A DNA stretch of 9,579 nucleotides from IMG/VR virus record IMGVR_UViG_2690316286_000014, one strand, 5' to 3'. This DNA is from a virus (Duplodnaviria > Heunggongvirae > Uroviricota > Caudoviricetes). How positions within the stretch are numbered: position 1 is the stretch's first letter; each line of letters starts with the position of its first letter. The position numbers and the translations under genes are program-made. Of this stretch, positions 953 through 9,045 are shown piece by piece. The notes beneath the pieces are model-generated. The model had not been told where the DNA came from. It searched no databases and was given only the letters and a program-made list of their open reading frames with translations.

Positions 953-1108
953 TTACTCTCTAGATTCGTAGTCTACGAAGACAGCGACCTCCGTCTGGCC
1001 GGTTCGGATTCGTACCTCACAGAGGTCTTTCCTCGTTACCAGTGCCGTCGCTATGACGGTTAAACAGATGACGATCAGGGCGATTAACATCGCCTTTTGC
1101 TGCTTCAT
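953..1108 (-). CDS. hok: Hok/Gef-family membrane toxin (type I toxin, 51 aa)
   Basis: Translation MKQQKAMLIALIVICLTVIATALVTRKDLCEVRIRTGQTEVAVFVDYESRE has the Hok/Gef hallmarks: a single hydrophobic helix, the conserved TRKDLCEV and RTGQTEVAVF segments, and an acidic C-terminus. ATG at 1108 is preceded by AGGAG at a workable spacing. Confidence 0.85.
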   Translation of the reverse strand: MKQQKAMLIALIVICLTVIATALVTRKDLCEVRIRTGQTEVAVFVDYESRE

Positions 1109-1165
1109 AGCCTGCTTCTCCTTGCCTTTCGGCACGTAAGAGGCTAACCTACATGTGTTCAGCAT
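953..1165 (-). CDS. mok: Mok-like in-frame N-terminally extended reading frame enclosing hok (70 aa)
   Basis: ATG at 1165 is in frame with hok with no intervening stop (MLNTCRLASYVPKGKEKQA then the Hok sequence). This matches the in-frame MokC/HokC arrangement recalled for chromosomal hok loci. Confidence 0.5.
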   Translation of the reverse strand: MLNTCRLASYVPKGKEKQAMKQQKAMLIALIVICLTVIATALVTRKDLCEVRIRTGQTEVAVFVDYESRE

Positions 1166-1284
1166 GGATTGAGCCTCAGCTTAATGTTAAGCGTCTTGCA
1201 GGACGCGTAATGTTAACTGGGGCTTTTCTCTATCTGCCTTTTGGTGTTCATGCCTGAGGCAGATAGCCTCAAGCACCCATTATG

Positions 1285-1313
1285 ATTTTAACCAAAGTCT
1301 TTATATCTATAAA
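1285..1313 (-). promoter_or_regulatory. Putative sigma70 promoter for the mok/hok mRNA
   Basis: On the minus strand, -35 TTTATA (1313-1308) and -10 TAAAAT (1290-1285) are separated by 17 nt. The -10 overlaps the stop codon of the upstream peptidase gene; the predicted start near 1278 gives a leader of about 110 nt before the mok ATG. Confidence 0.3.
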
Positions 1314-2191
1314 GAGGCACAATATTACTCGATATATCATCATGTGTGCGCCTTATTCCAAACATTTTGGAAACAAAGCGTTCCCTCACTCCCGACATAT
1401 CCAGTATCTGCTTCCAAGAAGATATATCCAGCAATTCAACTGCACAGGAAAGTAAGCGAGGTTTTTCCTCAGGGATTAACTCATCCCCCATCTCTCCTTT
1501 AATCGTCCCTCTTTTATTTAGATGGATAAATCCCGTTCTCATTTGTTGTGGCGTAATCAGCCCCAAAACCGTAGCACGATAAATACACATGCGAAGACTG
1601 ATTTTCCATCGTTCTTTGAAATTAATTAGTGCATTCCAGTCAAGATGCGATCCTCGCATTTTAGGAAATTCATTAACGAACGAAACTCTAGGTACAAGGA
1701 ATGCGCTCGAAAAATAATCCGCATGATGTTCTGTAATTTTATCCCCTGTTATAATCCCTTCATGCAAAACAAGATGCCCCAGTTCATGACCGAGATCTGA
1801 GCGAAATCGACACACACTCTTTTTCGCGGAATTTCTAATTATCAATGGGCGTTTACTATTAATAGTAAACGCATCAATACGATCATCCACGCCAGATACA
1901 TGAGCAACAACAACCCCAATACTTTCCACGAAATTAACCATTGAAGATATCGGTCCCAGCCCCAACCCCCAATACCTTCTACAGGCCTCGGCAATTCTTT
2001 CAATATCTTCATCGGAGTTCAAAGGTAATCCGGACGTATCAGGAAAGTTCAATTCTGGAAGAACTATTTCTGTTTCCAAACACTTTACAAACTGCTCCAA
2101 AATTTCAGCTCGAGCCAGAATACTATTAGTTAAGGACTGCGTCCTTGATCTCTTGCTTCTGAAATGGCAGTTCTCGCTGTCTAATGGTGAT
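1288..2191 (-). CDS. ImmA/IrrE-family (Peptidase_M78 / COG2856-like) zinc metallopeptidase domain protein; C-terminal 301 codons visible, 5' part hidden by N-run
   Basis: 301 codons are open down to TAA at 1288-1290 in sequence of about 40 percent GC. HELGH sits at 1774-1788 (minus), followed by EHHADYFSSAFLVP, which fits the HEXXH...E..A..FA..LL.P pattern of ImmA/IrrE peptidases. The preceding DIERIAEACRRYWGLGLGPISSMVNFVESIGVVV also looks typical of that domain. About 130 residues C-terminal to the domain have no recognisable motif. Confidence 0.8.
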
Positions 2192-2687
2192 NNNNNNNNN
2201 NNNNNNNNNNNNNNNNNNNNNNNNNNNNNNNNNNNNNNNNNNNNNNNNNNNNNNNNNNNNNNNNNNNNNNNNNNNNNNNNNNNNNNNNNNNNNNNNNNNN
2301 NNNNNNNNNNNNNNNNNNNNNNNNNNNNNNNNNNNNNNNNNNNNNNNNNNNNNNNNNNNNNNNNNNNNNNNNNNNNNNNNNNNNNNNNNNNNNNNNNNNN
2401 NNNNNNNNNNNNNNNNNNNNNNNNNNNNNNNNNNNNNNNNNNNNNNNNNNNNNNNNNNNNNNNNNNNNNNNNNNNNNNNNNNNNNNNNNNNNNNNNNNNN
2501 NNNNNNNNNNNNNNNNNNNNNNNNNNNNNNNNNNNNNNNNNNNNNNNNNNNNNNNNNNNNNNNNNNNNNNNNNNNNNNNNNNNNNNNNNNNNNNNNNNNN
2601 NNNNNNNNNNNNNNNNNNNNNNNNNNNNNNNNNNNNNNNNNNNNNNNNNNNNNNNNNNNNNNNNNNNNNNNNNNNNNNNNNNNNNNN
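2192..2687. other. N-run (496 nt): gap or masked sequence inside the peptidase locus
   Basis: Uninterrupted n characters; length is not a multiple of 3. Confidence 1.
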
Positions 2688-3165
2688 CAAAACCTATCAG
2701 GGCTAAAAGCCACGTTGGAGGTTCGATATCTTCATCTTTTTTATTTGCAGATGGTAATTTTTCAGCCAGAACACGCCATGTAACATCATGTTCAAAATTA
2801 ACATCATCTTCAAAAAGAGATAACTGACGACACTCAACATCATTTTTACATAAGCGATGTTTCTTTTTTGGTGAATCCAGTTTATCGGTCACAAACTGTA
2901 ACGGCACCCTGTTCAGGGTAAACACAAAATTCAGAGGTGTTGAAAGAATCGCCACTCCTTTGAGTTTTTTATGATTTTTTACAAGAAAGTTTTTTATCCA
3001 TCCATAGGCCCTACATCCATTAATCCAGTTATCATCATACTCATGGCGATGGAACCATAATTCGCCAAGTACGTTAGCAAATTGCTGAAGAAGATTGATA
3101 ACAGATTTTTCATCCAAACAAGGATTGATTTCAAAACACGGTTGGAGATTCTGTTCAGACGGCAT
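2688..3165 (-). CDS. AT-rich hypothetical protein, N-terminal 159 codons visible; either the N-terminus of the peptidase protein or a separate upstream gene
   Basis: Open frame of 159 codons in sequence of roughly 30-35 percent GC, where random stops would be frequent. ATG at 3165 is preceded by GAGGG about 7 nt upstream. Translation MPSEQNLQPCFEINPCLDEKSVINLLQQFANVLGELWFHRHEYDDNWINGCRAYGW... has no HTH or other motif I can recognise. It shares a coordinate frame with 1288..2191 (the track's 639-aa ORF), but the N-run makes that uninformative. Confidence 0.6.
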
Positions 3166-3319
3166 AAGGTATCCCTCTCTCTTAAAACTCCGCTCATCTT
3201 TACGCAAAATTTTATTTTTGTAAACCTAATCTTTGGGGTATTTCACGAATTCGTCAACCAGTTGAACGAACTTTAACCACAATACATATTTATCTACATT
3301 GATATGAGTATCGCTAACA

Positions 3320-3550
3320 CTATTGTGGGCATTCAGCTAGTATTACCAAGCCTTCAGGTGCGCGAAGTTGTTCCACACAGTGCAGCAGCGCATCAGTCGC
3401 TTCCTTAAGCGTCACAGTGTCGCCATCACCCAGTCCTGCAATTTTTGCGTGCCTGACAAACGCCGCGCAAAGGTCGTTAAACGCCCCTGCCCGCACATCC
3501 GCCAGGAAAGCATTAGCAGCAGCCAATTCCTGGTAGTCAATCCTGCTCAC
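3320..3550 (-). CDS. Hypothetical protein (76 aa), translationally coupled to the upstream gene
   Basis: GTG at 3550-3548 overlaps the TGA stop of the upstream gene (GTGA) and is preceded by AGGAGG. Translation VSRIDYQELAAANAFLADVRAGAFNDLCAAFVRHAKIAGLGDGDTVTLKEATDALLHCVEQLRAPEGLVILAECPQ. It is the 3' part of track ORF 3320..3619. Confidence 0.55.
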   Translation of the reverse strand: MSRIDYQELAAANAFLADVRAGAFNDLCAAFVRHAKIAGLGDGDTVTLKEATDALLHCVEQLRAPEGLVILAECPQ

Positions 3551-3972
3551 TGCGCCGCCTCCTGAAAATTCCCCTGATAGAAAGCCAGTACACACTGCAT
3601 AACTTCGCTCTTCCTGCACTCGCGACAGATTATGTTCTGTCGTCTGTTGTAACGACGTATTTCGCCGTCTGGTAACGACCAGATAAGGTCCGGATCAACC
3701 ACAGATGTTTTTTTCTTCAGTTTTGCCCTTGATAGTTTTTTGCGGGCGTTTTGCCAGTCCTTACGAGCCTGTTCAGACGGGAATAACCCGTAGCCAGAGT
3801 TGTATACATCCCCACTGGCAACCAGCTCTCTGGCGAGAACGCTTATTAAATATCTTGTCGCCCCGGTTTTAGCTTCCAGTTGTCGTAACGTCTCGCGCCC
3901 ACTCTGGCGTACGAGTTCAACAACCTGCCCCTTAATTTTTTCCCGCTCTTCCTGTGTAAATACTTTTGCCAT
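3547..3972 (-). CDS. Small phage protein with a winged-helix-like N-terminal domain (141 aa); paralog of the gene at 5634..5889
   Basis: ATG at 3972 (MAKVFTQEEREKIKG...). The first 85 residues align with the MAKPFTPEQREELKT... protein at 5889, sharing ELVASGDVYNSGYG.FPSEQA.KDWQNARKKLSR. Codon usage is E. coli-like. Confidence 0.75.
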   Translation of the reverse strand: MAKVFTQEEREKIKGQVVELVRQSGRETLRQLEAKTGATRYLISVLARELVASGDVYNSGYGLFPSEQARKDWQNARKKLSRAKLKKKTSVVDPDLIWSLPDGEIRRYNRRQNIICRECRKSEVMQCVLAFYQGNFQEAAQ

Positions 3973-3987
3973 AAGCGCCCCCGGCAA

Positions 3988-4713
3988 TCACTTTTCCGAC
4001 ACAATACGACCGGAGGAATCGACAATCTGTCGAACAATATCCCGGTGCTTGTTCAGCTCCCGCAACGCGGCGCAGACACGCTCCCACTTCTGGACATGAC
4101 TTTTCGCCCGACGCAGTTCGCGGTTTGCCATATGCAGCGATGGTAAAACCAGGTCATCCGCTTGCGTTTCGGTGAACGATGGCAACGACTGCACAATGTC
4201 CGCCACAGTTTCTGTTTTAATTTCTTCCTGTGTTGCAGCTTCCTGTACCGGTAACGCAACACCTGCTGGCTGAGGAAAGACTTTACCATCCGTTTCCGCT
4301 ATGGATGCGGCTTTCGGCTCTGCCGGTAAATCAGCGCCCGGTATGCAGTACCGAAATTTACCGCCCTGATTCACGCGAATCAGACGCCCTTTGCTGATTG
4401 CCATGGCCAGCGATGAATTCGCCCGGCGGGAGGTAATCCCGAACATCAGTGCCAGCTCATCCGCCGTTTGTGGGCCATGTTGTTCAATCGCCTCAGTCAG
4501 CATTTGCGCTGTCACTTTCGGTACCGGTGACACTGGTTCACTTTCACCAGCCTGAATCAGCCACCACATCGAACCCTTGTTATCCGCTTCACCACGGCGC
4601 TTCAGTTTCCACAGTTCGTTGACCGCATCTTCACGGCTGATTCCAAGGCGGGACGCCACCACATGTGAAGAGGCTCTTTTCAGTGCTTTCAGTGCGTCAA
4701 ATACAGTTTCCAT
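3988..4713 (-). CDS. Phage protein with two winged-helix-like segments (241 aa), function unknown
   Basis: ATG at 4713 ([12 protein letters not shown]...) is preceded by GGAGG 7 nt upstream; the track ORF starts 6 codons earlier at a TTG. Stop at 3988-3990. Confidence 0.75.
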
Positions 4714-4734
4714 TAAAACATCCTCCAACAAAAA

Positions 4735-5350
4735 TTACTTCACAACTCCCGGAAAGCTGACATTTGAACGCCAGCTATCCCAGTTAAACGTCACCCACCG
4801 ACAACCGTTCATGGTCATGCGGTCCATAATNNNNNNNNNNNNNNNNNNNNNNNNNNNNNNNNNNNNNNNNNNNNNNNNNNNNNNNNNNNNNNNNNNNNNN
4901 NNNNNNNNNNNNNNNNNNNNNNNNNNNNNNNNNNNNNNNNNNNNNNNNNNNNNNNNNNNNNNNNNNNNNNNNNNNNNNNNNNNNNNNNNNNNNNNNNNNN
5001 NNNNNNNNNNNNNNNNNNNNNNNNNNNNNNNNNNNNNNNNNNNNNNNNNNNNNNNNNNNNNNNNNNNNNNNNNNNNNNNNNNNNNNNNNNNNNNNNNNNN
5101 NNNNNNNNNNNNNNNNNNNNNNNNNNNNNNNNNNNNNNNNNNNNNNNNNNNNNNNNNNNNNNNNNNNNNNNNNNNNNNNNNNNNNNNNNNNNNNNNNNNN
5201 NNNNNNNNNNNNNNNNNNNNNNNNNNNNNNNNNNNNNNNNNNNNNNNNNNNNNNNNNNNNNNNNNNNNNNNNNNNNNNNNNGGATTTGGCCTGGCTCAGC
5301 GCGTATTTTTGCCCGTCGTTCTGCACCTGATAATTCGCAAACGAGCATTT
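4735..5350 (-). CDS. Second, diverged DnaC-like helicase-loader copy (C-terminal 31 codons and a 23-codon internal island visible; remainder is N)
   Basis: 4735-4830 translates to IMDRMTMNGCRWVTFNWDSWRSNVSFPGVVK then stop, against VMDRMVMNGGRWVNFNWESWRPNVSHSRVVK at the end of the 5904..6650 protein. The island 5282-5350 translates to KCSFANYQVQNDGQKYALSQAKS against KCSFANYRAQNDGQRHALSQAKS. The two visible parts are not in the same coordinate frame across the 451-nt N-run, so the gene may be disrupted or the N-run length may not be exact. Confidence 0.5.
4831..5281. other. N-run (451 nt): gap or masked sequence
   Basis: Uninterrupted n characters. Confidence 1.
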
Positions 5351-5633
5351 NNNNNNNNNNNNNNNNNNNNNNNNNNNNNNNNNNNNNNNNNNNNNNNNNN
5401 NNNNNNNNNNNNNNNNNNNNNNNNNNNNNNNNNNNNNNNNNNNNNNNNNNNNNNNNNNNNNNNNNNNNNNNNNNNNNNNNNNNNNNNNNNNNNNNNNNNN
5501 NNNNNNNNNNNNNNNNNNNNNNNNNNNNNNNNNNNNNNNNNNNNNNNNNNNNNNNNNNNNNNNNNNNNNNNNNNNNNNNNNNNNNNNNNNNNNNNNNNNN
5601 NNNNNNNNNNNNNNNNNNNNNNNNNNNNNNNNN
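5351..5633. other. N-run (283 nt): gap or masked sequence
   Basis: Uninterrupted n characters. Confidence 1.
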
Positions 5634-5889
5634 TCACCTTTACCCTCGATAGCTTTTTGCGGGCGTTTTGCCAGTCTTTATGAGCCTGTTCAGAGGGAAA
5701 TACCCCGTAGCCAGAATTATATACATCACCACTTGCGACCAGTTCCATGCATAAGCGACCGACAGACGCACGACTGATACCTGTTTCATCTGACAACTGC
5801 CGAATCGTGACCCGACCGTCCTGATGCACGAGTTCCACAATTCGCGTCTTCAGTTCTTCCCGCTGTTCGGGAGTAAAAGGTTTCGCCAT
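5634..5889 (-). CDS. Small phage protein with a winged-helix-like domain; N-terminal 85 codons visible, 3' end in N-run
   Basis: ATG at 5889 is preceded by AGGAGG. Translation MAKPFTPEQREELKTRIVELVHQDGRVTIRQLSDETGISRASVGRLCMELVASGDVYNSGYGVFPSEQAHKDWQNARKKLSRVKV is paralogous to the 3547..3972 product. Confidence 0.7.
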
Positions 5890-5903
5890 AAATCCTCCTG
5901 AAA

Positions 5904-6650
5904 CTACTTAACAACCCTCGAATGGCTAACATTCGGACGCCAGCTCTCCCAGTTAAAATTCACCCAGCGCCCGCCGTTCATGACCATGCGATCCATCACC
6001 CGCTCGCCGAGAAGTGTATTCATCGCTGCATGGTTAATATTTGTCAGCATCCCCACACCGCGTAACGATGCCGTCCGGCGATCAACAATCTGGTTCAGTA
6101 CCACCTGCTCGTTTTTCGTATCCCGCTGCATGCCAATTTCATCCAGGACCAGCAGGTCAACACCACAAAGCTCCTGTAAAAATTTTTCACCGGATTTGCC
6201 GTTGTCGTAGCTCTCATGCAACACGCTCATGACATCGGACACGGTGACGATAATCACGCTACGCCCCTTCGCCATCAGCCGGTTGCCAATCGCGTCTGCA
6301 AGATGATTTTTTCCGGTGCCGGGCTTACCGCTGAACACAAAATTCGTACAGCCTGTCATCAGTTCGTCAGCTATGGATTTCGCCTGACTCAGTGCATGTC
6401 GCTGACCGTCGTTCTGCGCCCGGTAATTCGCAAACGAACACTTCCGGTGCAACGGCTGGATGCCGGAGCGGTTCAGGATTTTTTCCACCCGCAACTGACG
6501 ATTCAGGCGGTTGATCTCCTCGCAACGTTTCTGGCCTTCAGCAAGTTGCCACTCGCGCCACTCCGCTACCGTTCTGAATGGGGCGGTTACATGTGGCGGG
6601 GTCAGTCGGCGGATGCGTTCCAGAACGCCTCCTGTCGCAATATTTTTCAT
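5904..6650 (-). CDS. DnaC/IstB-like AAA+ helicase loader (prophage replication protein, 248 aa)
   Basis: Walker A GKPGTGKNHLA and Walker B LLVLDEIG are present. The protein is close to chromosomal DnaC along its whole length as I recall it (NRSGI.PLH..CSF.NYR, LTNSN-like segment, GERVMDRM). ATG at 6650. Confidence 0.9.
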   Translation of the reverse strand: MKNIATGGVLERIRRLTPPHVTAPFRTVAEWREWQLAEGQKRCEEINRLNRQLRVEKILNRSGIQPLHRKCSFANYRAQNDGQRHALSQAKSIADELMTGCTNFVFSGKPGTGKNHLADAIGNRLMAKGRSVIIVTVSDVMSVLHESYDNGKSGEKFLQELCGVDLLVLDEIGMQRDTKNEQVVLNQIVDRRTASLRGVGMLTNINHAAMNTLLGERVMDRMVMNGGRWVNFNWESWRPNVSHSRVVK

Positions 6651-6656
6651 GGTCTG

Positions 6657-7856
6657 TTACCCCCTGAAGCCTGGCGGGATCGCACTGTCCGGCAACGAGA
6701 CGGTGTTAACCTGTCGGAGCAACGTCTCAGGCCGAACACCTTTCGGCGCGAACAGACCCTGGTATTCATTGGCGATGCTGTGTCGAATCACCTGCTCAGG
6801 TGTAAAACCCTGCTGACGGAATTTTTCCAGTTCCCGTATCGCCCCGTTAGCGCCCTGCTCCGTTCGAATCGGTTTTCGCAATGCCTGCCTGAACTGGACC
6901 CACTCATGCCAGAGTGTTTCTGGCAACCAGTCGGGCAGATCAACTGACAACGGGTCAAATTTTTTCTGGCGAACAGCCCCACCGATAACCAGAATTCCCT
7001 GCTCGGTGTGCCTTGCGATATCACTGCGCCGCAAGACACATATCCCGGTTTCAACAGCACCGATTTTGAGCAGTGATTTCTGTCGCGGAGAATTTCGGTC
7101 AAGCTCGCTCCCACACCGGACACCGTTCCTGTCAGTCACGACGATATCAATCCGCCCTCCGCAACCGTCACCACGCTCTGGCACCGGATACTCACGACAG
7201 ACATCCAGGCCAGCAGCCTGCAACGCAACCACCGCAGAATTACAAAATTCCGCTGCAGTACCGCCAGATAATCTCCCCTCAAGCACTCCAGCCACAAAAT
7301 CCCGAAACTCCCTTCCGGAAGGGAAGGGTTTGGGATGGGTTAGATCTGTTTTTAGATCTTTATCTGTATCTTTATTAGTTGCCTTTGTGTTGGCATCATG
7401 TTCGAACATCACTCCAACATCTGTTTGAACACCTGTTAAATTTCTCTCTTGTTTTGTTTGAACATCTGCTTCCTTTCTGCTTCTTCTGGCCTGAACAGAT
7501 GCTTTTCCTGCGGCTGATTTTTTGGTTAATTTTTCTCTGACAGATGCCAGATCTTCCTCAATCCGAAGATGCATCCATTCGTCGCCGTTATCACAAAAAA
7601 ACTCCCGCAAGGATGGTTCAACATCAACCCATCGCTCGTTAGTCAGACGGGCAATTTTTGCCAACCTGTTTTTGGGTATTGGCTTTCCTGTTTGCCAGTA
7701 ATTGAACATCAGCAACAAATACGCGCCGTGCTCCTCTGCTGACAAATGCATGGTGTCAGCCAGGTAATCAGCTATGTACAGTTGCATGTATGGTAATGCG
7801 GCCATAATTGCCCCGTATGATGCTGCCCGGTTGCTTAGAATAAGCACAAACAGCAT
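6657..7856 (-). CDS. Phage replication initiation protein: DUF1376-like N-terminal domain plus DnaT-like C-terminal domain (YdaU-like, 399 aa; true start may be the internal ATG near 7805)
   Basis: N-terminus MAALPYMQLYIADYLADTMHLSAEEHGAYLLLMFNYWQTG is DUF1376-like. C-terminus ...VNTVSLPDSAIPPGFRG matches the DnaT C-terminus as recalled. A low-complexity K/T/D-rich linker lies between them. The stop is 4 nt upstream of the DnaC-like start, a dnaT-dnaC-like pairing. Confidence 0.85.
   Translation of the reverse strand: MLFVLILSNRAASYGAIMAALPYMQLYIADYLADTMHLSAEEHGAYLLLMFNYWQTGKPIPKNRLAKIARLTNERWVDVEPSLREFFCDNGDEWMHLRIEEDLASVREKLTKKSAAGKASVQARRSRKEADVQTKQERNLTGVQTDVGVMFEHDANTKATNKDTDKDLKTDLTHPKPFPSGREFRDFVAGVLEGRLSGGTAAEFCNSAVVALQAAGLDVCREYPVPERGDGCGGRIDIVVTDRNGVRCGSELDRNSPRQKSLLKIGAVETGICVLRRSDIARHTEQGILVIGGAVRQKKFDPLSVDLPDWLPETLWHEWVQFRQALRKPIRTEQGANGAIRELEKFRQQGFTPEQVIRHSIANEYQGLFAPKGVRPETLLRQVNTVSLPDSAIPPGFRG
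7340..7505. repeat. Iteron-like direct and inverted repeats with an adjacent AT-rich segment: candidate replication origin inside the initiator gene
   Basis: Near-identical 14-mers TGTTTGAACACCTG (7422-7435) and TGTTTGAACATCTG (7455-7468); related copies TGTTCGAACATC (7399-7410) and AACATCTGTT (7416-7425); inverted copy CCTGAACAGATGC (7489-7501). An AT-rich block at 7340-7378 contains TTAGATCT twice. Confidence 0.4.
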
Positions 7857-7868
7857 GGAAACTTTTGC

Positions 7869-8290
7869 TTAATGAACAATGACAGAATCGTCGGAAGACC
7901 CGCCGCCGCTGAAATGCGCTTTCCGGTAAACGGCCTGGACTGCATCATCATGCGCATCAATTGCCGTACTCAACGCTTCCTGCGCCGCCAGTAATGCACG
8001 GCGTTCCAGGGTATCGAAGATGCAGAGTCGGTGACGCAGCTCGCGCGGAAGAATTGCCAGAACCGCAGGGATCAGTTTCTGAATTTTTTCCCTTTGCGCT
8101 TTCGTTTCACCTTTCAACCAACGGTGATAGATATTCTGCTGATTGTTCCAGTCCTTGCCTGGTACAAGGGGCAATTCGCCGCCCCCCTGGCGCAGATATT
8201 CTTCAGTAATTGCGTTAGCGACCCACGCCTGCCCTTTTTCGGCTGCCAGGGCAACAGCACTGATTCGATGTGCTCATGCCTGATTTTCAT
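7869..8290 (-). CDS. YdaT/CII-like prophage regulator with an apparent frameshift near 8252-8256 (possible pseudogene or sequencing error)
   Basis: ATG at 8290-8288 overlaps the Cro-like stop (ATGA) and reads MKIRHEHIESVLL before drifting into rare codons and a stop. The coding-like frame with E. coli codon usage (...ALAAEKGQAWVANAITEEYLRQGGGELPLVPGKDWNNQQ...SDDSVIVH) is offset by one and has no standard start before the TTG at 8174 (track ORF 7869..8174). One extra base in the + strand run GCAACAG would join the two into about 140 aa, the size I recall for YdaT. Confidence 0.6.
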
Positions 8291-8529
8291 GAATCAACCG
8301 CTCCTATGCTGTTTTCGCTATGCTTACCGTCTGGGGGGAATACATCGTCAAGTCCACAATGAGCGCCAAGCCGATTAAGGGTAGAAACAATTTTTCTGCA
8401 CTCCTCTAGTCCAGGGGTACGAAAATTTGCTTCGTAATTTGCCAGTCGGCTTTGTATCCACCCTAACTGAACAGCAAGTTGTCTTTGAGACAGCCCAAGC
8501 TGTTTTCGATATGTTGAAATTTTGTTCAT
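8287..8529 (-). CDS. Cro-like XRE-family helix-turn-helix regulator (80 aa)
   Basis: ATG at 8529 with GGAGG 5 nt upstream. HTH segment LGLSQRQLAVQLGWIQSRLANYE. Divergent from the repressor gene. Confidence 0.85.
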   Translation of the reverse strand: MNKISTYRKQLGLSQRQLAVQLGWIQSRLANYEANFRTPGLEECRKIVSTLNRLGAHCGLDDVFPPDGKHSENSIGAVDS

Positions 8530-8625: not shown

Positions 8626-9045
8626 ATGGAAAAAGAAAACGAAAAAATTGCCGCTAGTAGGCTCAATGACAAAATTGCAATGCGTCTTAAAGAGCGCAGG
8701 CAGAAGCTTGGTTTATCTCAAGGAAAACTTGCTGAAATCTGCGGATGGACGCAATCGCGTATAGGTAACTATGAGGCGGGCAGCAGAAATGTTGGAGTAC
8801 ATGACGCTGTCGTATTGGGAAAGGCACTTGGCATATCTCCTCCTGAGCTCCTCTTTGGAGAACAGGAATCTTCTGAATTGTGGTTAAATGAATCCCAACG
8901 AAAACTTCTTGAGTTGTTTAACCAGCTACCGGGCTCAGAACAACAACGAATGATTGAGCTATTTGAAGTCCGGCTAAAAGAAATCGATGAGTATGTAGAA
9001 AAATATTTGAGAGGCAGGATTAAAGATAATCCCCCACCGGAATAA
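8626..9045 (+). CDS. CI/DicA-like XRE-family HTH prophage repressor (139 aa), no LexA-like autocleavage domain
   Basis: HTH segment LGLSQGKLAEICGWTQSRIGNYEAG. The C-terminal LLELFNQLPGSEQQ resembles the DicA C-terminus as recalled. ATG at 8626 with AAGGA upstream; stop TAA at 9043-9045. Confidence 0.9.
   Translation: MEKENEKIAASRLNDKIAMRLKERRQKLGLSQGKLAEICGWTQSRIGNYEAGSRNVGVHDAVVLGKALGISPPELLFGEQESSELWLNESQRKLLELFNQLPGSEQQRMIELFEVRLKEIDEYVEKYLRGRIKDNPPPE

Follow-up and report, generated by a model that had tools for sequence, protein, structure and literature searches.

An AT-rich segment at positions 1288-3207 of the IMG/VR virus record IMGVR_UViG_2690316286_000014 raises the question of whether it encodes a single, exceptionally large metallopeptidase or two separate genes, and what role the product or products may have. 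The whole stretch of 9,579 nucleotides, referred to here as the window, contains the early region of an Escherichia coli Rac/Qin-like lambdoid prophage, with hokD, DUF977, DUF1627, a DnaC-like ydaV, a DUF1376 replication protein, ydaT and ydaS homologues and a DicA-like repressor. RosmerTA systems have been defined as a Zn-peptidase antitoxin accompanied by a toxin of unknown function, and are defensive (10.1101/2022.05.11.491447). Taking the evidence together, the locus is in all likelihood a two-gene toxin-antitoxin (TA) and anti-phage module of the RosmerTA type, carried as cargo by the prophage. This kind of system is already catalogued, and libraries of hidden Markov models for defence systems recognise both proteins. 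The main value of the analysis is a correction, as the apparent giant ImmA protein is produced by translating across the masked bases. An earlier interpretation, the sequence-only reading, had suggested a sensor or regulator of a defence or abortive-infection module, which is close to the truth, except that the peptidase is itself the RosmerTA antitoxin, with a fused helix-turn-helix (HTH) domain.

The composition of the segment sets it apart from its surroundings. With the masked bases (N) excluded, 1288-3207 has a GC content of 39.5%, against 48.2% at 1-1287 and 51.8% at 3320-8300, which bears out the drop from about 50% that had been reported; by part, the values are 40.6% at 1288-2191, 37.0% at 2688-3165 and 33.8% at 3166-3319. 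The apparent open reading frame (ORF) of 639 codons at 1288-3207 results from a mechanical read-through of an N-run of 496 bases at 2192-2687. The two visible fragments share one frame because 496 is 1 modulo 3. In relatives the intervening stretch is 377 bases, which is 2 modulo 3, and the fragments therefore lie in different frames and belong to two genes. A megablast search against 5,426 complete E. coli genomes detected the locus in 31, O157:H7 and O103:H2 strains among them, with hits 99.5-99.8% identical over the visible flanks and the same record span in all 31. The same DNA is also present on three IMG/VR contigs, and the 377 bases between the window flanks are identical in the four relatives read, namely these contigs and the E. 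coli genome L001 (NZ_CP066753.1).

In L001, two minus-strand genes overlapping by 14 nt are annotated, the upstream one encoding a 216-aa hypothetical protein (WP_001138877.1) and the downstream one a 373-aa "helix-turn-helix domain-containing protein" (WP_000418464.1). The residues visible in the window correspond to positions 1-159 of the former, RmrT, and 74-373 of the latter, RmrA, and every one of them is identical. The proposal of one large protein with an unrecognisable N-terminal region is thus not upheld, since relatives have two overlapping genes and the supposed N-terminal region is a separate protein, the toxin RmrT. The accompanying remark that one gene could not be told from two under the mask was apt, as the N-run hides the junction. 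The overlap is present in these close relatives, from which the junction in the window is taken over, and 10 other contexts have the same gene arrangement. The start of rmrT is placed at the ATG at 3165 (3163-3165), which is preceded by a GAGGGA Shine-Dalgarno sequence and coincides with the first position of the family alignment, and not at the TTG at 3207. The coordinates of these and other features are collected in Table 1.

RmrA is the better characterised of the two proteins. Its HELGH motif lies on the minus strand at exactly 1774-1788, as had been described, and the visible C-terminal 300 aa, which comprise a linker, the M78 Zn-peptidase domain and a C-terminal region, match Pfam Peptidase_M78 with an E-value of 9.3e-13 and 48.5 bits (cut-off 22). 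It is hence a genuine M78/ImmA-IrrE peptidase with an intact HEXXH. The full 373-aa protein matches HTH_3 over residues 15-67 (E 5.8e-13, a domain seen in relatives only) and Peptidase_M78 (PF06114) over residues 162-279 (E 5.6e-13). The XRE HTH partner that had been thought absent is therefore in place, as the first ~70 residues of the peptidase protein itself, under the mask. The PADLOC RmrA model matches residues 10-352 at 5.7e-107, with almost all of the model covered, and PHROG 2439 matches the full protein at 3.2e-118, with minor PADLOC matches to capP (1e-11, on the M78 domain) and capH (0.0016). The metal site that characterises RosmerTA antitoxins is represented by HELGH together with E227 in TEHHADYFSSAFLVP, and HE[LC]GH with the downstream Glu is kept in 7/7 aligned RmrA proteins, including the experimentally verified RmrA of E. 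coli OLC-716, to which the window protein is 30% identical (E 2e-36). The longer pattern TE..A[DN].F[SA]SAF..P is conserved in all six RmrA proteins of the subclade, with AE at the TE position in the verified protein. A CHFR motif just after the HTH is likewise common to these six, and the verified Millman RmrA reads SFRA there; as ImmA-type proteases cleave HTH repressors, CHFR might by analogy be a self-cleavage or docking site. The NCBIfam equivalog 'spr1629 family repressor/antitoxin' (NF052239) matches RmrA over its full length with 162.3 bits, below its cut-off of 335, and RmrA is therefore considered to be of related architecture and no equivalog. A search of PDB sequences with RmrA returned HTH domains as the only matches.

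The evidence for RmrT comes from family profiles. The 159 codons at 2688-3165 had been described as having no HTH or known motif, and a Pfam search indeed gave no match. The 216-aa protein is, however, matched by the PADLOC RmrT model PDLC03929 (1.4e-18, model positions 9-197 of 198), which assigns it to the RmrT family, and by PHROG 5786 (6.6e-72). All 47 members of the RmrT family alignment match PDLC03929, the best at 4.8e-46, and none of them has a convincing Pfam match. When the RmrT profile was run against 1.84 billion representatives, 124 clusters were obtained (E <= 0.001), mostly of stand-alone proteins of ~200 aa, and a word-indexed profile search found 51 clusters, none with a Pfam domain. 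Members occur in E. coli, Salmonella, Proteus, Aeromonas, Vibrio, Photobacterium, Pseudomonas and environmental Gammaproteobacteria. RmrT has no NCBIfam match, and a PDB sequence search with its profile yielded nothing meaningful.

Its sequence predicts a soluble protein, with no transmembrane helix (the maximum 19-residue Kyte-Doolittle mean is 1.2). A membrane toxin such as the RmrT of Gordonia phage Kita was considered and ruled out, as there is no hydrophobic segment. The predicted structure, based on 47 sequences, gave a weak match to a restriction-endonuclease-like fold; it replaced an earlier model from 7 sequences (predicted local distance difference test score, pLDDT, 64) that gave weak, mixed fold matches. 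The conserved polar residues H41, D44, R52, Y54, E111, Q114 and R131 are located in helices and loops, and no conserved acidic residue or Lys is found on model strands 81-84 or 87-93. A PD-(D/E)XK nuclease assignment was not adopted, because the D ... (D/E)xK catalytic motif is not conserved. The C-terminal tail of RmrT, residues ~172-216 (under the mask; 8700-8834 in L001), is disordered; among the enterobacterial members it has a conserved basic stretch and a conserved end, ...LQRRVK.DKK.DS.KNGT[VI]. The start codon of rmrA lies inside the stretch coding for this tail, which is possibly an RmrA-binding site or a ClpX-recognition element.

The association of the two genes extends well beyond the window. 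In 11 of 11 readable contexts, an RmrT-family gene immediately precedes a gene for an HTH-M78 protein of 367-381 aa, usually with an overlap between the two; for the Mesorhizobium and P. aeruginosa proteins no Pfam HTH match is on record or was run, and Mesorhizobium RmrA homologue clusters carry HTH_31. Starting from the toxin, the pair was found beside higB within the nif cluster of an environmental methanotroph-like contig, in Proteus prophages in the same slot between the replication genes and DUF1367/Q, and on two metagenomic contigs. Starting from the antitoxin, it was found in a Raoultella prophage, in P. aeruginosa between insertion sequence (IS) elements and in Mesorhizobium, with RmrT-profile matches of 1e-28 to 1e-60 for the genes upstream. 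From Enterobacterales to Pseudomonas and Rhizobiales, members of the RmrT subfamily are consistently found with a single RmrA subclade. Of the two proteins, RmrA is the slower to diverge: within Enterobacterales the identities are 57-64% for RmrA and 40% for RmrT, and with environmental members they are 40% and 20-23%. A second rmrTA variant occurs at 3677-5732 of the E. coli plasmid pMY504-2 (NZ_AP026904.1), where RmrT is 41% identical to that of the window and the pair adjoins hokD on its other side, with lambdoid prophage-type DUF977, RusA and antiterminator genes nearby. An RmrA cluster 58% identical to the window protein has 529 members, mostly from E. coli, and this variant appears to be much commoner than that of the window.

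Several points weigh against the assignment. The window RmrT has no sequence similarity to the verified RmrT of OLC-716 (BLASTP E 1.9; no family-profile match), no experiment was found on the PDLC03929-type RmrT subfamily, and no mention of WP_001138877 or WP_000418464 was found in the literature. The intactness and the HTH of the window copy are read from its relatives, with the centre masked and the run 119 bases longer than theirs. A tblastn search of 50,697 GenBank phage genomes detected no RmrT homologue, and with 31 carriers among 5,426 complete E. coli genomes the module is a rare one. An anti-phage role for the window pair is argued by analogy.

Table 1. Positions of the rmrTA locus, its signals and the bordering elements within the window.
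Feature	Position	Strand	Basis or remark
Variable cargo segment	1279..3546	.	Bounded by the hok/sok element and by the DUF977 (lygF) gene at its 3' end
Candidate promoter/operator	3196..3259	-	Two direct GGTT[GT]AC boxes, 3253-3259 and 3220-3226, 33 nt apart
Shine-Dalgarno GAGGGA, 6 nt upstream of the rmrT ATG	3172..3177	-	Read from the sequence
rmrT, visible 5' part, codons 1-159 of 216	2688..3165	-	Amino-acid identity to WP_001138877.1
Masked stretch	2192..2687	-	In relatives: rmrT codons 160-216, 14-nt overlap, rmrA codons 1-73 (XRE HTH); presumed content in the window
rmrA, visible 3' part, codons 74-373 and stop	1288..2191	-	Amino-acid identity to WP_000418464.1
CHFR motif of the RmrA linker, residues 81-84, directly following the HTH	2158..2169	-	RmrA partner alignment
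Peptidase_M78 domain, RmrA residues 162-279	1573..1926	-	Pfam PF06114; HELGH 1774-1788
Downstream Glu E227 of the TEHHADYFSSAFLVP segment	1729-1731	-	Third metal ligand segment
Rfam 'sok' (RF01794), hok leader and sok region of the adjacent type I TA element, marking the cargo boundary	1103..1278	-	120.4 bits, gathering score 59
hokD coding sequence, 51 aa, immediately downstream of rmrA	953..1108	-	Pfam HOK_GEF 6.1e-23; annotation of L001 and K-12

Comparison of the loci has also revealed a two-box element upstream of rmrT. Each of the GGTT[GT]AC boxes of the window is followed after 17 nt by AAAGAT (3229-3234 and 3196-3201). All 12 loci compared have one box or more ahead of rmrT, and 10 of the 12 have two; the boxes are 33-34 nt apart in six loci, and in three the spacing is 19 nt. 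Among random 150-nt control segments, 1.9% had two boxes and 0.34% had two at 32-34 nt. A generic promoter scan upstream of rmrT gave nothing convincing. The sigma-70 -35 consensus is TTGACA, and the boxes may therefore be plain tandem promoters. Alternatively, they may be the operator of the RmrA HTH, and the conserved two-box GGTTGACA element constitutes a concrete candidate for such a site. Two other features were considered and set aside, as neither is conserved in other rmrTA loci: an imperfect palindrome, TTGACGAATTCGTGAA, at 3242-3257, which overlaps the first GGTTGAC box, and a perfect 8-bp inverted repeat, CCACAATA/TATTGTGG, at 3277-3284/3321-3328, with 36 nt between the arms.

A mechanism can be proposed from these features and from what is known of other Rosmer systems. 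Transcription on the minus strand would start from the promoter at ~3196-3259 and proceed through rmrT (ATG 3165) and then rmrA (stop 1288), which is probably translationally coupled to rmrT through the 14-nt overlap. As in other Rosmer systems, RmrT would be toxic when RmrA is absent and would be neutralised by RmrA. RmrA would also probably repress the operon via its HTH, with the GGTTGACA boxes as candidate sites. By the same analogy, phage infection or loss of RmrA control would free RmrT and lead to growth arrest, and ClpX/ClpP may help to restrain the toxin.

The position of the pair is consistent with its description as cargo. Homology to GenBank Rac-like phages breaks off at ~1278-1279, within a few bases of the stop codon of rmrA, and is picked up again at ~3546-3560; the low GC and these sharp boundaries together support the separate acquisition that had been suggested. 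The expectation of relBE at this place beside hok was also well founded, given that K-12 Qin has relB-relE upstream of hokD. Unrelated genes occupy the slot in phage Rac-SA53. To judge by these occupants, the slot upstream of hok/sok in Rac/Qin-like prophages is one where whole TA cassettes are exchanged, with relBE in K-12, rmrTA in the window and other genes in Rac-SA53. The minus-strand region 953-1278 forms a complete hok/sok-type locus, followed by a terminator-like hairpin at 865-882. The end of rmrA is 9 nt upstream of the sok-family match, and in K-12 hokD is 72 nt downstream of relE. The stretch 3320-3546 (minus-strand ORF 3320-3619), which separates the DUF977 gene from the rmrT promoter, has ~53% GC and no Pfam match; it corresponds in L001 to a partial hypothetical gene without its N-terminus and is probably a remnant left by cassette exchange.

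Further from the pair, the minus-strand ydaT homologue at 7869-8290 has a 1-nt deletion at ~8253 relative to L001 (CCAGGGC-AACAGC vs CCAGGGCTAACAGC), which splits this YdaT_toxin-family gene into ORFs at 7869-8174 and 8114-8290; a pseudogene or a sequencing error is the probable explanation. In the replication region at 3547-6650, the DnaC-like ydaV is present twice (~4740-5350+ and 5904-6650), each copy ~88% identical to L001 ydaV, along with two copies of DUF977 (3547-3987 and 5634-5889). The N-runs between the duplicated genes (451 and 283) do not fit the gene lengths of relatives, and the duplicated region could owe its form to mosaicism or recombination, or else to the masking.

Among the alternatives to a phage-defence module, a TA pair serving mainly to stabilise the prophage by addiction, like hok/sok and relBE, or to take part in a ClpXP-linked host stress response, like the pneumococcal Rosmer system RipAB, has the strongest case; it is plausible, though given a fairly low probability. 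The pair lies beside hok/sok, in place of relBE, and the sequenced free phages have yielded no homologue. Even with no phage present, Rosmer antitoxins cannot be dispensed with, and clpX or clpP likewise become essential. Nevertheless, two Rosmer systems tested against phages, those of E. coli OLC-716 and Gordonia phage Kita, conferred protection, and several members are situated near other defence-like or TA genes. The two roles are compatible with each other.

A more speculative extension of the RosmerTA assignment, to which a low probability is given, is that PDLC03929-type RmrT has a new mode of action and is controlled by RmrA proteolysis beyond sequestration, in a protease-relay TA with a GGTTGACA operator. 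According to this proposal, the M78 site would clip either the RmrT tail or RmrA's own CHFR linker, and the product would pass to ClpXP. The modelled RmrT would be a soluble protein with a degenerate restriction-endonuclease-like fold and a conserved, disordered, basic C-terminal tail. If true, a widespread Rosmer subtype would be a protease-relay toxin-antitoxin system. Whatever its mode of action, PDLC03929-type RmrT would repay study by those interested in how Rosmer toxins and peptidase-antitoxins act.

Less likely than such a protease relay is a difference of 119 bp in the window copy by which the two genes are fused or altered. Relatives have 377 bases where the window has its N-run of 496, and the excess of 119 bases might stand for an insertion under the mask that would make the window copy a decayed remnant. 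A 44-mer peculiar to the window had no exact match among the genome contigs searched, and its single match among viral contigs lies on one that is only 94% identical and not the source of the window. The neighbouring ydaT homologue, with its 1-nt deletion, and the rearranged replication block point in the same direction. On the other hand, the visible codons (459 of 589) are all intact and identical to those of intact relatives, and mask lengths look unreliable elsewhere in the window too. The conserved ydaV gene contains a second N-run, whose length deviates by 76 bases, a number not divisible by 3. As two N-runs fit conserved genes poorly, their lengths are suspected and may not be faithful, and decay of the window copy is considered improbable.

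It had further been suggested that the peptidase is an ImmA-like anti-repressor, cleaving the non-autocleaving DicA-like repressor at 8626-9045 and leading to induction. Cleavage of XRE-type repressors is well established for the ImmA, IrrE and CapP peptidases (PMC10440598), the 139-aa repressor has HTH_3 without an S24 domain, and the M78 domain has the weak capP match. Most of the evidence speaks against this suggestion, which is judged very unlikely. The peptidase has an HTH of its own and RmrT as its strict partner; a distance of 5.4 kb separates the pair from the repressor, which belongs to another transcription unit, and the pair occupies a swappable cargo slot. Proteus prophages hold the same pair together with a repressor that has an S24 autocleavage domain, and the pair also occurs outside prophages, in the higB/nif cluster, in P. 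aeruginosa between IS elements and in Mesorhizobium. K-12 Qin, which has DicA itself, carries relBE in the slot and no M78 gene. Known ImmA genes, moreover, are small and adjacent to the gene of their substrate. An ImmA/ImmR-type switch, with a stand-alone protease beside a separate HTH repressor, was accordingly rejected, as here the HTH is fused and the repressor is 5.4 kb away. The CapH/CapP regulator was set aside as well, the matches being at domain level (capP 1e-11 and capH 0.0016, against 5.7e-107 for RmrA), and the window holds no CBASS-like genes.

A single fusion protein of ~639 aa, in which the M78 peptidase would carry a novel N-terminal domain as a single-chain TA or a fused variant copy, is very unlikely: its one support is the length of the N-run, which if taken literally (496 being 1 modulo 3) keeps the fragments in one frame and, at 119 bases longer than in relatives, could mean a differing window copy, against which stand the 377 bases and two frames of 34/34 relatives examined, the stand-alone RmrT family members of ~200 aa, the mask lengths that look unreliable from the 76-base excess in the second run, and the finding of no RmrA homologue cluster longer than 388 aa among the matches listed (120 of 170 at E <= 1e-30).

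Returning to the RosmerTA assignment, the closest comparison is with the system of E. coli OLC-716 (10.1101/2022.05.11.491447), which, like the locus in the window, has two co-oriented genes with the toxin first and an antitoxin of ~370 aa with an XRE HTH, an M78 Zn-peptidase domain with HELGH and a C-terminal region. In the work that defined RosmerTA, a delta-rmrA mutant could not be transformed (10.1101/2022.05.11.491447). The toxins differ, as their sequences are unrelated and that of the window belongs to another RmrT cluster (PDLC03929). ImmA-type antitoxins have been described as a hub paired with many different toxins (PMC10440598), and related RmrA proteins accompanied by unrelated toxins fit such a pattern.

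Two further pairs share the toxin-first order, a toxin of ~200 aa without a known domain and an antitoxin of ~362-370 aa with an HTH and a Zn-peptidase. One is vmi480/vmi470 of Vibrio mimicus, a validated TA in which vmi470 cannot be deleted alone (PMC4671572), and the other is the prophage-borne pair E101_02645/02644 of E. coli E101, which makes clpP essential (10.1101/2020.05.25.114553); toxicity and neutralisation have been shown for both (PMC4671572; 10.1101/2020.05.25.114553). Vmi480 and E101_02645 are likened to RmrT by description only, given that their accession numbers differ from those of the window-type proteins and were not seen among the RmrT cluster members. In Streptococcus pneumoniae, RipAB (Spr1630/Spr1629) has been identified as a Rosmer system in which cells need ripB only if they also carry ripA, the target of RipA is the sliding clamp DnaN, and control of the toxin is ClpX-dependent (10.1101/2025.09.02.673660). 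Its antitoxin has the same architecture as the window RmrA, which scores 162 bits with the spr1629 model, below the cut-off of 335; RipA targets DnaN, whereas the window RmrT has no NCBIfam match at all. In Pectobacteriaceae, rmrA is essential and clpP/clpX dependence has been reported (10.64898/2025.12.09.693261), so that dependence on clpP or clpX has now been described for several Rosmer systems (10.1101/2020.05.25.114553; 10.1101/2025.09.02.673660; 10.64898/2025.12.09.693261). The RmrTA of Gordonia phage Kita is also a phage-borne Rosmer pair with an ImmA-type antitoxin, and provides narrow-spectrum defence (PMC10440598). Its toxin is membrane-localised and depolarises the membrane (PMC10440598), unlike the window RmrT, which has no hydrophobic segment.

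The combination of an HEXXH M78 peptidase with an XRE HTH is shared with ImmR/ImmA of ICEBs1, IrrE/DdrO and CapH/CapP. There, protease and HTH reside in two different proteins, and repressor cleavage switches on an element or a defence operon; in the window the HTH and protease are fused and paired with a toxin, with no CBASS or integrase module alongside. Finally, the relBE-hokD arrangement of K-12 Qin is the positional counterpart of the locus, a two-gene TA cassette in the same slot and orientation upstream of hokD. There is no homology between the two pairs, relBE being antitoxin-first with a small ribbon-helix-helix antitoxin and an mRNA interferase toxin, and the window pair being toxin-first with an HTH-peptidase as its antitoxin.

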